The notes below the pieces were generated by a model. That model saw only the letters and a program-made list of their open reading frames with translations, was not told where the DNA came from and ran no database searches. This document shows positions 3,635-31,535 of a stretch of DNA of 64,000 nucleotides, piece after piece. The stretch is from Escherichia coli. GTDB lineage: Bacteria > Pseudomonadota > Gammaproteobacteria > Enterobacterales > Enterobacteriaceae. The position numbers and the translations under genes are program-made. The stretch's first letter is position 1; each line of letters begins with the position of its first letter. Location of the stretch: NCBI RefSeq assembly GCF_024502345.1, contig NZ_JALDNN010000001.1. One strand, given 5' to 3'.

Positions 3635-4476
3635 TTGAGAACCGTCCGTGGCTGACGATATTCAGCCATACCATGCTGATCCTCGGGATCGCGGTGATCC
3701 TCTTCCCGCTGTACGTGGCGTTTGTCGCGGCGACGCTGGATAAACAAGCCGTCTACGCCGCGCCGATGACGCTAATCCCCGGCACGCATCTGCTGGAAAA
3801 CATCCACAACATCTGGGTAAACGGGGTAGGCACAAATAGTGCGCCGTTCTGGCGGATGTTGCTTAACAGCTTCGTGATGGCGTTCAGCATTACGCTCGGC
3901 AAAATTACCGTCTCGATGCTCTCGGCATTCGCCATTGTCTGGTTTCGTTTTCCGCTGCGTAACCTCTTTTTCTGGATGATTTTTATCACCCTGATGTTGC
4001 CGGTTGAAGTACGTATCTTCCCGACGGTGGAAGTCATCGCCAACCTGAAGATGCTCGACAGCTACGCAGGTTTAACGCTGCCGCTGATGGCCTCGGCGAC
4101 CGCGACGTTTCTTTTCCGCCAGTTCTTTATGACCCTACCGGATGAACTGGTGGAAGCCGCGCGGATCGACGGCGCGTCGCCAATGCGCTTCTTTTGCGAC
4201 ATCGTTTTTCCGTTGTCCAAAACTAATCTGGCGGCGCTGTTTGTGATCACCTTTATTTACGGCTGGAACCAGTATTTGTGGCCGTTGTTGATTATTACCG
4301 ACGTGGATCTCGGCACCACCGTGGCAGGGATCAAAGGGATGATCGCCACTGGCGAAGGCACCACGGAATGGAACTCAGTGATGGCGGCGATGTTGTTAAC
4401 CCTGATCCCACCAGTAGTGATTGTTTTAGTGATGCAGCGTGCCTTCGTGCGCGGCCTGGTCGATAGTGAGAAATAA
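3631..4476 (+). CDS. ugpE: sn-glycerol-3-phosphate ABC transporter permease
   Basis: 281-aa membrane ORF; ATGA overlap with the ugpA stop (3631-3634). Confidence 0.95.
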
Positions 4477-4477
4477 G

Positions 4478-6834: not shown

Positions 6835-8577
6835 ATGATAAAACCGACGTTTTTACGCCGGGTGGCCATTGCTGCTCTGCTCTCAGGAAGTTGTTTTAGC
6901 GCCGCCGCCGCGCCTCCTGCGCCGCCCGTCTCGTATGGTGTGGAGGAAGATGTCTTCCACCCGGTACGCGCGAAACAGGGAATGGTAGCGTCTGTGGACG
7001 CCACTGCCACTCAGGTGGGGGTGGATATTCTCAAGGAGGGCGGGAATGCCGTTGATGCCGCCGTGGCGGTGGGCTACGCGCTGGCGGTAACGCATCCGCA
7101 GGCAGGGAATCTGGGCGGTGGTGGTTTTATGTTAATCCGCTCGAAAAATGGCAATACCACGGCTATCGATTTCCGCGAAATGGCACCCGCCAAAGCGACC
7201 CGCGATATGTTCCTCGATGATCAGGGCAACCCGGACAGCAAAAAATCACTCACTTCGCATCTGGCTTCCGGCACACCGGGTACGGTAGCAGGTTTCTCGC
7301 TGGCGCTGGATAAATACGGCACCATGCCGCTGAACAAAGTCGTGCAGCCCGCGTTTAAACTGGCACGCGATGGTTTTATCGTTAACGACGCGCTGGCTGA
7401 CGATCTCAAAACCTACGGTAGCGAAGTGTTGCCGAATCACGAAAACAGTAAAGCTATCTTCTGGAAAGAGGGCGAGCCGCTGAAAAAGGGCGACACGCTG
7501 GTGCAGGCGAACCTGGCAAAGAGCCTGGAGATGATTGCTGAAAACGGCCCGGACGAATTCTATAAAGGCACGATTGCGGAACAGATCGCCCAGGAGATGC
7601 AGAAAAACGGTGGCTTGATCACTAAAGAAGATTTAGCGGCCTATAAAGCGGTCGAACGCACTCCGATAAGCGGCGATTATCGCGGGTATCAGGTTTACTC
7701 CATGCCACCGCCATCCTCCGGCGGGATCCATATCGTACAAATCCTCAATATTCTGGAAAACTTCGATATGAAGAAATACGGCTTTGGCAGCGCCGATGCG
7801 ATGCAAATCATGGCAGAAGCGGAGAAACACGCCTACGCCGACCGCTCGGAATATCTTGGCGACCCGGATTTTGTCAAAGTCCCGTGGCAGGCACTGACCA
7901 ATAAAGCCTATGCCAAATCCATTGCCGATCAAATTGATATCAACAAAGCGAAGCCGTCCAGTGAGATTCGCCCTGGCAAGCTTGCGCCTTATGAGAGTAA
8001 TCAAACTACCCATTACTCAGTGGTGGATAAAGATGGTAACGCGGTGGCGGTGACCTATACGCTGAACACCACCTTCGGTACGGGCATTGTCGCGGGCGAG
8101 AGCGGTATTCTGCTTAATAATCAGATGGATGATTTCTCCGCTAAACCGGGCGTACCGAACGTTTACGGGCTGGTGGGCGGTGATGCCAACGCCGTCGGGC
8201 CGAATAAACGTCCGCTGTCGTCAATGTCACCAACGATTGTGGTGAAAGACGGTAAAACCTGGCTGGTCACCGGTAGCCCTGGCGGGAGCCGGATCATCAC
8301 TACAGTGCTGCAAATGGTGGTGAATAGCATCGATTATGGCATGAACGTCGCCGAAGCGACCAATGCGCCGCGTTTCCACCATCAGTGGTTGCCGGACGAG
8401 CTGCGTGTCGAAAAAGGGTTTAGCCCGGATACGCTCAAGCTGCTGGAAGCAAAAGGTCAGAAAGTGGCGCTGAAAGAGGCGATGGGCAGTACACAAAGCA
8501 TTATGGTTGGGCCGGACGGTGAGTTGTACGGCGCATCCGACCCGCGCTCGGTGGATGATTTAACGGCGGGGTACTAA
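6835..8577 (+). CDS. ggt: Gamma-glutamyltranspeptidase
   Basis: ORF track 6808..8577; start set at ATG 6835 (MIKPTFLRRVAIAALL...), 580 aa; signal peptide and recalled Ggt sequence. Confidence 0.95.
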   Translation: MIKPTFLRRVAIAALLSGSCFSAAAAPPAPPVSYGVEEDVFHPVRAKQGMVASVDATATQVGVDILKEGGNAVDAAVAVGYALAVTHPQAGNLGGGGFMLIRSKNGNTTAIDFREMAPAKATRDMFLDDQGNPDSKKSLTSHLASGTPGTVAGFSLALDKYGTMPLNKVVQPAFKLARDGFIVNDALADDLKTYGSEVLPNHENSKAIFWKEGEPLKKGDTLVQANLAKSLEMIAENGPDEFYKGTIAEQIAQEMQKNGGLITKEDLAAYKAVERTPISGDYRGYQVYSMPPPSSGGIHIVQILNILENFDMKKYGFGSADAMQIMAEAEKHAYADRSEYLGDPDFVKVPWQALTNKAYAKSIADQIDINKAKPSSEIRPGKLAPYESNQTTHYSVVDKDGNAVAVTYTLNTTFGTGIVAGESGILLNNQMDDFSAKPGVPNVYGLVGGDANAVGPNKRPLSSMSPTIVVKDGKTWLVTGSPGGSRIITTVLQMVVNSIDYGMNVAEATNAPRFHHQWLPDELRVEKGFSPDTLKLLEAKGQKVALKEAMGSTQSIMVGPDGELYGASDPRSVDDLTAGY

Positions 8578-8585
8578 GGTTAGCG

Positions 8586-8613
8586 GCCCTCTTCGTGGGA
8601 AGAGGGCTATTTT
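8586..8613. terminator. Hairpin terminator between convergent ggt and yrhB
   Basis: Perfect 9-bp stem gccctcttc / gaagagggc (8586-8594 and 8599-8607) with 4-nt loop, followed by tattttg. Confidence 0.6.
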
Positions 8614-8614
8614 G

Positions 8615-8899
8615 TCAGGGCAAGCCGAAGGTAGCCTTTTTTATTTCGTAATCCTGTAGATATTCTTCCAGCGGCTTTGCCGTTCCCAGAGAATGAATTT
8701 CACCACTGTCTTTATCAATAATAAAAGGTGCGTTACCAGCTAAGCGCGCGGCCTCATCTCCAGTTTCGAGAAATTCTCGTGCTTCGAAACAGAAATACCA
8801 GCCCTGGCTAAAGCGTCCATGTAGAGTAATGACGACCGGGAGATCTGCATCATCAAGGTAATGGTTCGCTTTCGCGAATGCGTCGTGATAAGTAATCAT
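8615..8899 (-). CDS. yrhB: Small heat-stable chaperone-like protein YrhB
   Basis: 94-aa ORF MITYHDAFAKANHYLDD... recalled as YrhB. Confidence 0.85.
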   Translation of the reverse strand: MITYHDAFAKANHYLDDADLPVVITLHGRFSQGWYFCFEAREFLETGDEAARLAGNAPFIIDKDSGEIHSLGTAKPLEEYLQDYEIKKATFGLP

Positions 8900-9098
8900 A
8901 ATTATAATAAATATTATTGTTGAGTGTTATATTATTATTCCTGTGTGATACATTGAGCAAAGACGCGTTCATCTTCGTCAAAGATATTATTAAATGCTGG
9001 TTTTGAAAAAAGTTCATCGGATAAGATATAGTCACGAAATAAGTATCTGCTAATATTTTATGATTTCTTTTTCAGAACGTCGAACGGGATTTTCTTAT

Positions 9099-9254
9099 TT
9101 AAGATATCAGAATCTTATGATTCGGGTAAAATTCTAAATAAATCAACATGTCATTAAAATCATCATAGCCATTAGCTATTTCGGCTAAAATAGAGACTAC
9201 ATGTCTTCGGTCCATCTCACTTAAGGAGTGTAGTTCCGTTGTAAGTTTTTCCAT
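9099..9254 (-). CDS. yrhD: Small protein, 51 aa (YrhD-like), not on the supplied ORF track
   Basis: Hand translation of the minus strand from ATG at 9254 gives MEKLTTELHSLSEMDRRHVVSILAEIANGYDDFNDMLIYLEFYPNHKILIS then stop at 9099-9101. Length and position match my recollection of K-12 yrhD; below the 60-aa track cut-off. Confidence 0.5.
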   Translation of the reverse strand: MEKLTTELHSLSEMDRRHVVSILAEIANGYDDFNDMLIYLEFYPNHKILIS

Positions 9255-9348
9255 AGCTTGCACTGCTAAATTTCGAACAAGGAATTTTCTGCTGGTAATC
9301 TCTAAAAAGATGGCATGGTTTACAATGATTTTTGTTTCCTTTTGATTA

Positions 9349-9843
9349 TTATGAACAACTGTCCATGATTTCGTTTAAGAATGAAGAGAAATCACTAAAC
9401 GAACTGAATATATTTTCTGTGCCAATATTATCTCTAATTTCAAAAAAGTTACTTTTAATGTCATAAGTAAATATTGAAATGCTATCATCCCCGATCACTA
9501 ACCGTTCTTGTAGATCAGGGTTTATGAAATCATCATTATTTCTATAAAATTCATTTACGGCAAAAAGGTTTTTAACTGAAGGTTCTGGAATCGAGAGGCT
9601 AAATAATCGTAATCCATTAACTTCGAATCCATCCATTGCTCTTAAAAAAGTAAGATAATCAGGTTGATTCTTAAAAAGAATACTAACTTCATTACATAAC
9701 TTCTCCAGGCAATTAGTTGAATTAGAATTAAATTCTATTTGGATTATACTTTCAATAAATGATTCCTTGAGCGGAGCTTCAAATGGATAGTCTAAATCAT
9801 TCATCATTTTTATTAATTTATTTATTTGGGTTTTAGTCATCAT
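9349..9843 (-). CDS. yrhA: Putative immunity protein for the upstream Hcp-nuclease toxin (YrhA-like, apparently intact)
   Basis: 164-aa AT-rich ORF immediately downstream of the toxin gene, with ATGA start/stop overlap (9840-9843); position typical of a toxin-immunity pair. Function inferred from context only. Confidence 0.6.
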   Translation of the reverse strand: MMTKTQINKLIKMMNDLDYPFEAPLKESFIESIIQIEFNSNSTNCLEKLCNEVSILFKNQPDYLTFLRAMDGFEVNGLRLFSLSIPEPSVKNLFAVNEFYRNNDDFINPDLQERLVIGDDSISIFTYDIKSNFFEIRDNIGTENIFSSFSDFSSFLNEIMDSCS

Positions 9844-11018
9844 TTTGTGTGGTCCATAATATTTTTCATGGGAGGATAAATTGAGCCAGATGGAATGGCC
9901 CAGGGAGTGATTTTGCTTTCACCTACTAATATTCCCTTAGCTATTCGTGATTGCATGTTAGTAAAAACTTTATGATATGGTTCGTTTTCGATTAATACTA
10001 AATTTTCGAAATCATTAGTACCACCATCATCTAGAGATAGTTTATGGTGAACATTATAATTTAGAGGAGCATTGCCCTTTCTCATTCTTAAAAGGTCTTC
10101 GGCGTTGAATCTTCCAGATGCTTCGGAGGTTTTTGCAAGTTTGATAAGAAAATTTTTTCTTACAGTTTTATTAAACTCCTTTCGTAAGTTAGCTAAGTCT
10201 TTTGAAGGTCTCTTAATGTATATTATTTCTATTATGTCTATACCATCAAGAAGTTTTTGTTGACCTCTAAGTTTGCCTAAGTAACTATTTATTTCTGTAT
10301 ATGTATCAACATTAGAACGCTTTGTTAAAAGAATAGATGCTGTTGCTATCGCTATGCCCGCTGTTTTTTCATTTAGTATTTGATCATAGCCTTTTATTGC
10401 ATCTCCACCCAGTTTTTCCGCAGTATCTCTGAATCCTTCAATGTTCCCATTGTATACGCCACCAGCAGCAAGTAGCCTGCCAATAGCTTTGCTGTTTAAC
10501 GTTTTGAAACGATTATTTGTTTGGTTTTTTGAATTTGGTAAAAACAAACGGTTATAATTTTCAGGGAGTGCCAAATAGCTGAACTCGGTATTTGCGATAA
10601 GATGTTGACAGAGGATAAATTCATAACTAATAGTTATTGTTTCTGTATCCAGTTGGTTTTCAATGATCTGGTGATGAATAGCCGATAAAAAAGCGCCTCT
10701 TAGTTGTATATAATAATACTTTTCCAATCTACCAAATCTATTTATTCGATAGAAGTCAAATCCCATAAATAATTGTTCATTATTGTTAATGGAATTAATA
10801 AATAATGGAGTGCTTTTATCAATTAATTTACAAAATGTTATACCATGGAACTGTGAACCAAGCCCCGTATTATTAATATTATTTAAGAGTGAGAATGTAA
10901 ATATTTCATCCTCATGCCCGCTCTGCCAACGATTACCTGTAGACTCAGAAGTCCCACAACCTGCGGAGATGCTTCCTTGTTGTTCTCCCGTTACTGTCAG
11001 GTAAACAATATTACTCAT
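9840..11018 (-). CDS. yhhZ: Hcp-family protein with C-terminal HNH/colicin-DNase-like nuclease domain (Hcp-ET type polymorphic toxin, YhhZ)
   Basis: 392 aa. The N-terminal roughly 150 aa (MSNIVYLTVTGEQQGSISAGCGTSE...GHEDEI...) resemble Hcp/T6SS tube protein. The C-terminus carries NVHHKLSLDDGGTNDFENLVLIENEPYHK, matching the HH...GG...D..N...H pattern of colicin E9-type HNH DNases. Low G+C. Confidence 0.85.
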   Translation of the reverse strand: MSNIVYLTVTGEQQGSISAGCGTSESTGNRWQSGHEDEIFTFSLLNNINNTGLGSQFHGITFCKLIDKSTPLFINSINNNEQLFMGFDFYRINRFGRLEKYYYIQLRGAFLSAIHHQIIENQLDTETITISYEFILCQHLIANTEFSYLALPENYNRLFLPNSKNQTNNRFKTLNSKAIGRLLAAGGVYNGNIEGFRDTAEKLGGDAIKGYDQILNEKTAGIAIATASILLTKRSNVDTYTEINSYLGKLRGQQKLLDGIDIIEIIYIKRPSKDLANLRKEFNKTVRKNFLIKLAKTSEASGRFNAEDLLRMRKGNAPLNYNVHHKLSLDDGGTNDFENLVLIENEPYHKVFTNMQSRIAKGILVGESKITPWAIPSGSIYPPMKNIMDHTK

Positions 11019-11250
11019 CCCTGAAAAGTCCTTTTATGGCATGCTATTTTATCAATGGCAATATTATGCTTGTTAATTGTTATTTATTTACTCCAGGAAA
11101 TTGTAGGCGTATATATTAAAAAAATATTACACTTTAGGAAGTAATTATGAGTTAAATCTCAATATATGTATTGGGCAAATAAATACCTTAAAGGAAGGTA
11201 TGTCGATTTTGAATGACACCCTTTTTCCATCTCAGAAAAAGGGCACTATC

Positions 11251-11739
11251 TTACTTCACCCGCGCCATATAATATGCATCGACATATTCACCATTACGCA
11301 ATGCGTACTTCTTACCAGTCCCTTCAATTTCAAAGCCGTATTTTTTATAGACCTTAATTGCCGGGGCGTTATCGACAAACACGGTTAGTTCAATGCGATC
11401 TACCCGCAACCAGTTGTCGCACATTTCAATCATCTCTCGCATCAGGGCGCTGGCGACGCCGCGGTTCTTCCAACGAGAGTCGACACAGATACCAAAATCG
11501 GCAACATGACTGCGGCGTGGGCGCTGTTGCACGTCAATGGTGAGATGGCCCACGACGTCTCCATCAATACAGGCGACGAGTTGCTTGATGCCGGGACGAT
11601 CGGCGAGTCGCTCCTGCCACATATGATCGGAAGGATGAGGCACCTGTAGTGTGTTGCAATACACCTCCGGCTGGGCGTGAATCTGCCTGATGGCCTCGTA
11701 ATCCCGTGTTTCTGCGTGGCGTATTACTATCTCACTCAT
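11251..11739 (-). CDS. yhhY: GNAT-family N-acetyltransferase YhhY
   Basis: ORF track 11251..11817; start reassigned to ATG 11739 (MSEIVIRHAETRDYEAIRQIH...), 162 aa, with a GGA-rich RBS upstream. Confidence 0.9.
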   Translation of the reverse strand: MSEIVIRHAETRDYEAIRQIHAQPEVYCNTLQVPHPSDHMWQERLADRPGIKQLVACIDGDVVGHLTIDVQQRPRRSHVADFGICVDSRWKNRGVASALMREMIEMCDNWLRVDRIELTVFVDNAPAIKVYKKYGFEIEGTGKKYALRNGEYVDAYYMARVK

Positions 11740-30469: not shown

Positions 30470-30487
30470 GGCTTTGTTGAATAAATC
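30470..30487. repeat. IS903 terminal inverted repeat (18 bp)
   Basis: ggctttgttgaataaatc; exact reverse complement is found at 31509..31526. Confidence 0.9.
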
Positions 30488-30525
30488 AGATTTCGGGTAA
30501 GTCTCCCCCGTAGCGGGTTGTGTTT

Positions 30526-31449
30526 TCAGGCAATACGCACGCTTTCAGGCATACCTGCTTTCGTCATTTTGTTCAGCGCTCGTACCAGGGCCATAGCCTC
30601 TGCAACCTGACCATCGTAGTCACGCAGTGTCAGTGAACCCCCGAACAGCTGTTTTACCCGGTACATCGCCGTTTCCGCTATCGAGCGACGGTTGTAATCT
30701 GTTGTCCATTTCCACCGCGCATTACTCCCGGTCATTCGCTGATTAGCCACTGCACGGTTACGGTCTGCATATTCACCGGGCCAGTAACCCGCACCTTTTC
30801 GGGGAGGGATAAGCGCGCTGATTTTCTTACGCCGCAGTTCATCGTGACATAGCCGGGTATCGTAAGCGCCATCGGCGGCGGCTGACCTGATTTTCCGGTG
30901 GGTTTGCCGGATTAACCCGGGGAAGGCCTCTGAGTCCGTAACGTTGTTCAGCGACAGGTCAGCGCAGATGATTTCATGTGTTTTACTGTCAACGGCGAGA
31001 TGCAGCTTACGCCAGATACGGCGGCGTTCCTGGCCATGCTTTTTGACTTTCCACTCGCCTTCACCGAAGACCTTCAGCCCGGTGGAATCAATTACCAGGT
31101 GTGCGATTTCACCCCGGGTGGGCGTTTTGAAACTGACATTAACCGACTTTGCCCGCCTGCTGACACAGCTGTAATCCGGGCAGCGTAGCGGAACGTTCAT
31201 CAGAGAAAAAATGGAATCAATAAAGCCCTGCGCAGCGCGCAGGGTCAGCCTGAATACGCGTTTAATGACCAGCACAGTCGTGATGGCAAGGTCAGAATAG
31301 CGCTGAGGTCTGCCTCGTGAAGAAGGTGTTGCTGACTCATACCAGGCCTGAATAGCTTCATCATCCAGCCAGAAAGTTATGGAGCCACGGTTGATGAGGG
31401 CTTTATTGTAGGTGGGCCAGTTGGTGATTTTGAACTTTTGCTTTGCCAC
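30526..31449 (-). CDS. IS903 transposase (DDE, IS5 family)
   Basis: ORF track 30526..31494 (TTG); probable GTG start at 31449 giving 307 aa beginning MAKQKFKITNWPTYNKALINRGS..., which matches my recollection of the IS903 transposase; also ...LVIDSTGLKVFGEGEWKVKKHG.... Confidence 0.9.
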   Translation of the reverse strand: MAKQKFKITNWPTYNKALINRGSITFWLDDEAIQAWYESATPSSRGRPQRYSDLAITTVLVIKRVFRLTLRAAQGFIDSIFSLMNVPLRCPDYSCVSRRAKSVNVSFKTPTRGEIAHLVIDSTGLKVFGEGEWKVKKHGQERRRIWRKLHLAVDSKTHEIICADLSLNNVTDSEAFPGLIRQTHRKIRSAAADGAYDTRLCHDELRRKKISALIPPRKGAGYWPGEYADRNRAVANQRMTGSNARWKWTTDYNRRSIAETAMYRVKQLFGGSLTLRDYDGQVAEAMALVRALNKMTKAGMPESVRIA

Positions 31450-31508
31450 GGAACGGTCTGCGTTGTCGGGAAGATACGTGATCTGATCCTTCAACTCAGC
31501 AAAAGTTC

Positions 31509-31526
31509 GATTTATTCAACAAAGCC
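31509..31526. repeat. IS903 terminal inverted repeat (18 bp, other end)
   Basis: gatttattcaacaaagcc = reverse complement of 30470..30487. Confidence 0.9.
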
Positions 31527-31535
31527 ATTGCCAAC
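31527..31535. repeat. 9-bp target-site duplication (right copy) attgccaac
   Basis: Identical to 30461..30469. Confidence 0.85.

Follow-up and report, generated by a model that had tools for sequence, protein, structure and literature searches.

The intact yrhA gene of an Escherichia coli strain is very probably the cognate immunity gene of the upstream toxin gene yhhZ (Hcp-ET1/ETI1)

The stretch of DNA analysed here, hereafter the window, consists of 64,000 nucleotides of the E. coli contig NZ_JALDNN010000001.1. Between ggt and yhhY it holds an island of low G+C content, delimited on the composition profile at positions 8700-11250 (about 30-34% G+C, versus 50-58% in the flanks), which contains yrhB, yrhD, yrhA and yhhZ, all on the minus strand. 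The flanking genes are ugpC, ugpQ, yhhA and ggt at one end, and yhhY, yhhX, yhhW and gntR at the other. About 30% of complete E. coli genomes lack the island. None of its four proteins has a match in PADLOC. For yrhD, a 51-aa ORF (9099-9254) annotated in other E. coli records, no NCBIfam match was found either, and among the related loci only E. coli has a counterpart. Scans for promoters and terminators over positions 8500-11400 gave nothing above the shuffled expectation, save for a hairpin at 8585-8608, between the convergent ggt and yrhB genes. This hairpin has a 10-bp, G+C-rich stem and is accompanied by T runs, and it is plausible that it acts as a bidirectional terminator closing the transcription unit of the island. 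An A/T run some 100 nt before the start codon of yhhZ, presumably within the promoter or leader, carries a deletion (11118-11121), of 1 nt relative to NZ_CP104123.1 and of 4 nt relative to K-12-type genomes. Elsewhere in the window, collinearity with E. coli 55989 is lost over a segment of about 1 kb (30472-31527). A 322-aa ORF lies there on the minus strand (30526-31494, MKDQITYLPDNADRSVAKQKF...) and probably encodes an IS5-type transposase; if so, this segment is an IS insertion relative to 55989.

The 164-codon ORF at positions 9349-9843, on the minus strand, is E. coli yrhA. Its product is 100% identical to RefSeq WP_000988496.1 ("protein YrhA"). The 392-aa ORF upstream of it, yhhZ (9840-11018, minus strand), ends with ...CAC ACA AAA TGA, and yrhA opens with ATG ATG ACT, the four bases ATGA (9840-9843) being common to the yhhZ stop codon (TGA) and the yrhA start codon (ATG). 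This arrangement, already reported in an earlier sequence-only reading of the window, can be read directly on the minus strand, and four other E. coli records are annotated with the same 4-nt overlap. No Shine-Dalgarno sequence was found in the 15 nt upstream of the yrhA start. The ATGA overlap, taken with the missing Shine-Dalgarno sequence, suggests that yrhA is translationally coupled to yhhZ by termination-reinitiation. In other genera, a spacer of 12-60 nt replaces the overlap between the toxin gene and the gene of the YrhA homologue, and coupling is therefore not essential to the YrhA family.

YrhA matches the NCBIfam model NF038335 (YrhA family, YPO0640_fam) with 125.5 bits, for a cut-off of 55 (E 1.5e-36), its residues 4-163 covering positions 2-149 of the 150 positions of the model. 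Homologues from eight genera (Citrobacter, Klebsiella, Leclercia, Dryocola, Kluyvera, Enterobacter, Atlantibacter and Lelliottia) are 164-166 aa long and align with it from end to end, with 45-68% identity and 28 invariant positions. No truncation relative to homologues was thus found, and the 164-aa protein is, as judged from these alignments, full length.

The intact state of the gene was then compared with that found in other strains. Of 5426 complete E. coli genomes, 3783 carry the 495-nt yrhA gene, and 3404 of these 3783 have it contiguous, which corresponds to some 90% of the carriers and 63% of the full set. A gene was counted as contiguous when a single place covered at least 80% of it; point frameshifts therefore still count as contiguous, and the K-12-type split, which leaves a 79% piece, falls just under the line. 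The interrupted copies listed come mostly from K-12 laboratory derivatives. Given this proportion of contiguous copies, an intact yrhA is the norm in E. coli and is not special to this strain, and the IS1-broken copy of K-12 is the exception. The sequence-only reading had proposed that this strain may retain a functional toxin-immunity pair: as far as the sequence goes, both genes are indeed intact, but this does not set the strain apart from most other carriers. At the nucleotide level, the best identity of the gene among the 3783 genomes is 99.8%, and a synonymous A at position 9775 (third base of yrhA codon 23), where the others have T, appears to be private. Outside E. coli records, a 3996-bp contig labelled as part of an uncultured Flavihumibacter MAG (CABHOW010000200.1) is 99% identical to the E. 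coli yhhY-yhhZ-yrhA-yrhD region; it is most likely a contaminant or a mis-binned contig.

The earlier reading also described yrhA of K-12 as a pseudogene interrupted by IS1, and comparison with K-12-type genomes bears this out. In NZ_CP152465.1, an IS1A-family element is annotated inside yrhA, and IS1E has been described within yrhA in K-12 (PMC12428005, 2025). Pairwise alignment of the junctions places a 768-bp IS1 (GGTAATGACTCC...GGCAGCATCACC) after window position 9462 in NZ_CP152465.1. The 9-bp site TTTAATGTC, which is duplicated around IS1E in K-12-type genomes, is single and unoccupied in the window (9454-9462). No IS1 interrupts yrhA here: the ORF is continuous, and the window is collinear with the intact locus of NZ_CP104123.1, 5801 of 5802 nt being aligned. 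The K-12 gene (b3443) is otherwise the same gene, with residues 1-130 identical except for D120Y, but it is disrupted by IS1E after codon 130, whereas the window allele is whole. The K-12-type product has 138 aa: after the 130 native residues, D120Y included, IS1 contributes the last 8. The 34 residues absent from K-12 (codons 131-164, positions 9352-9453, minus strand) include the conserved F134-E-I-R-D138, N144, F146, F149, F152 and L156, and the elements E133-137, E145-149 and H152-163 of the predicted structure discussed below fall within them. Because these lost residues would form two β-strands and the C-terminal helix of the fold, normal folding of the K-12 fragment is unlikely.

[quoted passage not shown] Its residues 1-147 (10578-11018, minus strand) form the Hcp (TssD) domain, matched by TIGR03344 (118 bits) and by Pfam T6SS_HCP (2.5e-11). 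The Pfam match to HNH is weak (0.015). The catalytic core motif, VHHKLSLDDGGTNDFENLVLIENEPYH, is at residues 323-349 (9972-10052, minus strand), and its key residues show at least 95% conservation among 26 relatives; in a literature listing, YhhZ is placed in group 32 of the His-Me-finger nucleases. The protein is identical to that of strain 55989 at 390 of 392 residues, and to that of K-12 at 391 of 392. The yhhZ ORF of the window is thus uninterrupted and, on this reading of its sequence, joins an Hcp N-terminus to a predicted C-terminal toxin domain whose HNH motif is kept. One of the differences is at codon 317 (10068-10070, nucleotide 10069), which encodes Ala here and Val in the four strains compared. 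Of the 3784 complete E. coli genomes in which the 61-mer around this codon is present, none has it exactly, all being at 98.4% identity or less. V317A is probably neutral, or a sequencing error. It lies 5 aa before the catalytic HH and could matter for the toxin, though the position is variable among homologues (V, S, L, P, N or T).

The linkage of the two genes was examined in eight enterobacterial YrhA loci, obtained from a scan of one genome per species. In all eight, the gene of the YrhA homologue is directly downstream of an ORF whose C-terminal part, of about 210 aa, matches residues 172-382 of YhhZ. The C-terminal part of YhhZ, of about 220 aa, comprises a conserved NSKxxGRLLAAGGxYNxN segment and the HNH. 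The Hcp N-terminus was found only in E. coli and C. youngae. In Kluyvera, Enterobacter, Atlantibacter, Lelliottia and "Enterobacter pulveris", the N-terminal domain is unrelated and carries the precomputed Pfam label PF26362; neither NCBIfam nor a local Pfam search named it. The toxin tip thus moves between carriers with the same downstream gene, as is characteristic of a toxin gene and its cognate immunity gene. The divergences of the two proteins are also correlated (Mantel r 0.70, p 2e-4, 12 pairs); this co-divergence, confounded by shared descent, backs the pairing weakly. Two further observations were made on related loci. The second carrier, with the PF26362 label, is associated with a YhhZ-type C-terminus and a YrhA-type gene in many Enterobacter, Kluyvera, Atlantibacter, Leclercia, Dryocola, Pantoea, Erwinia and Serratia. 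In Citrobacter freundii M-21 (3734-4477 of the locus), a 75-aa remnant of the toxin C-terminus is followed by an intact 166-aa YrhA homologue, which would be an orphan immunity gene made by decay of the toxin, the opposite of the situation in K-12.

The fold of YrhA was predicted with AlphaFold2, using 25 homologues (pLDDT 87.1, pTM 0.85). Structural matches of the model include the T6SS immunity proteins Tdi1 (8.2) and Atu4351 (6.7), and RhsPI, the SMI1/KNR4 immunity protein of a WHH nuclease toxin (4.7). Foldseek gave the same top matches. The model thus points to an α+β fold of the SUKH (SMI1/KNR4) type, an assignment that rests mainly on predicted structure. Indeed, no Pfam match was found for the window YrhA even at E ≤ 10, and a PDB sequence-profile search returned only chance matches to antibody chains. 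Among the 25 homologues, SUKH_6 is matched by one at E ≤ 0.001 and by four at E ≤ 0.1, single homologues have weak matches to SMI1_KNR4 and SUKH_5, and some UniRef names say SMI1/KNR4. Zhang, Iyer and Aravind (2011, PMC3113570) proposed that proteins of the SUKH superfamily confer immunity against nuclease toxins, those of the HNH type among them. The class of comparison is that of YobK of B. subtilis (2prv), Lin2918 (2icg) and RhsPI, partner of the RhsP WHH nuclease (8bd1); compared to these, YrhA is too divergent for the Pfam SUKH models and has its own NCBIfam family (YrhA/YPO0640). It also differs from the Im7 and Im9 partners of the colicin E7 and E9 DNases, which are four-helix proteins of about 85 aa, plasmid-encoded, for toxins with receptor-mediated import, whereas YrhA is a 164-aa, chromosomally encoded α+β protein whose toxin would be delivered by a T6SS. 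A model of the toxin C-terminal domain fused to YrhA by a (GGGGS)6 linker, built with 12 paired and 28 unpaired rows, had a pLDDT of 76 and a pTM of 0.50; its use was limited to confirming the HNH fold.

Conservation and structure model also bear on whether the yrhA ORF might be a chance frame or an annotation artefact. Apart from the missing Pfam match and Shine-Dalgarno sequence, nothing speaks for this, and we consider it next to impossible. The probability that 164 codons stay open by chance is 1.4e-6 at 32% G+C, and an open frame of at least this length appeared, in any of the six frames, in 2 of 1000 shuffles of the island. Such a frame would moreover hardly be conserved across eight genera, or give a confident structure model. 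A chance ORF is thus refuted by the open-frame statistics, the conservation and the model taken together.

The pair could be related to one that has been studied experimentally. Hcp-ET1 is described as an HNH DNase of STEC004 and of the O104:H4 strain C227-11 (locus AAF13_24945), with a characterised immunity protein, ETI1; according to reviews, it inhibits bacterial growth and its delivery depends on T6SS2 (Ma et al. 2017, Virulence 8:1189, as relayed in PMC6730261, PMC6099711 and bioRxiv 10.1101/2024.03.05.583533). A preprint on the STEC O22:H8 strain 154 reports that the orphan Hcp-HNH protein Ec154_00381 is 99% identical to Hcp-ET1 of C227-11/55989, and that the product of the downstream gene, Ec154_00380, shares 99.4% identity with ETI1, "which neutralized this DNase". 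We compared the yhhZ-yrhA loci of strains 154 and 55989, and found 388 of 392 identical residues for YhhZ (98.98%) and 163 of 164 for YrhA (99.39%). These values reproduce the reported ones, so that ETI1 would be YrhA, and Hcp-ET1 the YhhZ orthologue. The order of the genes and their approximate index are consistent as well; the correspondence is deduced from identity percentages and gene order, rather than from an accession number. The window YrhA is identical to the strain 154 protein, and shares 163 of its 164 residues with YrhA of 55989. In 55989 the pair likewise lies between yhhY and ggt, in the same order and with an identical 4-nt overlap. Relative to the 55989 alleles, the window differs by D16N in the immunity protein, and by A300T and the private V317A in the toxin, with nothing else of substance.

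The proposal of the sequence-only reading, that this ORF is the cognate immunity gene of the toxin upstream, thus receives support from the correspondence with Hcp-ET1/ETI1, the linkage in eight loci out of eight, and the SUKH fold of the model. We estimate at about 90% the probability that the intact yrhA is the cognate immunity gene of yhhZ, YhhZ being Hcp-ET1 and YrhA being ETI1.

The SUKH scaffold is known to bind many kinds of partners, and the structural matches of the YrhA model include Syd and Knr4. YrhA might then have a housekeeping or regulatory partner, as in the cases of Syd-SecY and Smi1/Knr4, its proximity to a toxin gene being incidental. This is very improbable, in view of the strict linkage to the same toxin domain across genera and across N-terminal carriers, of the location on an accessory island of low G+C content, which some 30% of E. 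coli do not have, and of the literature, where the downstream gene is named as that of the neutralising immunity protein.

Another candidate partner for YhhZ is encoded in the island itself. yrhB (8615-8899, minus strand) encodes a 94-aa Imm35 protein (Pfam, 4.6e-23), and this strong match to an immunity family, where YrhA has none, would be expected if YrhB were the immunity protein of YhhZ and YrhA had another role. The relatives of YrhB nevertheless point elsewhere. In Pectobacterium, Yersinia and Pantoea, homologues with 65-70% identity overlap the stop codon of cdiA, and the CdiA proteins encoded just before them end in PF15644 (Gln_amidase), a papain-fold toxin; Imm35 is described as specific for Tox-PL1 (PMC3482391). 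In addition, 450 nt and one gene separate yrhB from yrhA, the YrhA loci outside E. coli gave no match to YrhB, and it is YrhA that follows the HNH domain in all eight loci. For its homologues following CdiA Gln_amidase toxins and its family being tied to Tox-PL1, YrhB was rejected as the YhhZ immunity protein, a role that we regard as highly unlikely. Rather, yrhB looks like an orphan CdiI-type immunity gene, directed against a different toxin.

With YrhA as the cognate immunity protein, a mechanism can be proposed. YhhZ, at once subunit of the Hcp tube and HNH DNase, would be fired into neighbouring cells by T6SS2 and degrade their DNA, as described in the literature for Hcp-ET1. YrhA, a small cytoplasmic SUKH protein, would most likely bind the HNH domain in a 1:1 complex and block its access to DNA, as suggested by the reported neutralisation by ETI1 and by the SUKH precedent. 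Such a block would shield the producing cell both from the toxin that it makes and from toxin that sister cells inject. Ribosomes ending yhhZ would restart at the ATGA on yrhA, and the antidote would be made whenever the toxin is. The DNase toxicity, the T6SS2 dependence and the neutralisation by ETI1 are taken from the literature, whereas the mode of binding, the coupling and any activity of the pair in the present strain are inferred.

Whether the pair serves as a weapon in this strain is a distinct matter. Both genes could be intact, and the toxin idle, if T6SS2 were missing or if H-NS silenced the locus; yrhA would then be defensive, against neighbours armed with Hcp-ET1, or simply carried along. 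Several observations go in this direction. yhhZ is an orphan hcp gene far from any T6SS cluster. The compared region of the window is collinear with core genes of 55989, where that stretch has no annotated T6SS genes. In K-12, yhhZ and yrhA are tabulated among the "promoter islands" examined for H-NS binding, and the locus, AT-rich and listed among these islands, may be silent. The C. freundii locus described above, with its YrhA homologue left alone beside a toxin remnant, could also reflect a purely defensive use. Finally, K-12 keeps a full-length toxin gene, whose product is 391/392 identical to the window YhhZ, beside its IS1-cut immunity gene. Either the toxin is not expressed in K-12, or, without delivery, the cell has no strict need of the immunity gene; toxin silence and lack of a T6SS are thus possibilities to account for the tolerance of an intact yhhZ. 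According to a preprint, a spontaneous ΔyhhZ-yrhA deletion was seen in topA mutants of MG1655, and this, like the intact yhhZ beside a broken yrhA, fits with silence of the toxin gene in that background. On the other hand, the toxin ORF of the window is intact with all its catalytic residues, T6SS2-dependent killing by a near-identical protein is reported in the literature, and T6SS2 is widely distributed in STEC (strain 154 preprint). We therefore hold an idle or purely defensive pair to be possible, though rather unlikely.

In any case, the assignment of YrhA as immunity protein of YhhZ concerns a pair that is already known, as an annotated gene, as a curated family, and experimentally under the names Hcp-ET1 and ETI1. 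A 2024 preprint still lists yhhZ and yrhA as conserved proteins of unknown function; the gene names yhhZ/yrhA are linked here to the T6SS names Hcp-ET1/ETI1, and YrhA is assigned, from its predicted structure, to the SUKH immunity fold. The locus also confirms that K-12 is an atypical reference for yrhA. More tentatively, the ggt-yhhY island might be seen as a small mixed immunity locus, with YrhA acting against Hcp-ET1 and YrhB against a CdiA glutamine-amidase, the HNH/YrhA cassette being carried also by PF26362 proteins. If this were true, YrhB would protect E. coli against the CdiA Gln_amidase tips of Pectobacterium, Yersinia and Pantoea, and the toxin would have a second route of delivery, through the PF26362 carrier found in many Enterobacterales.
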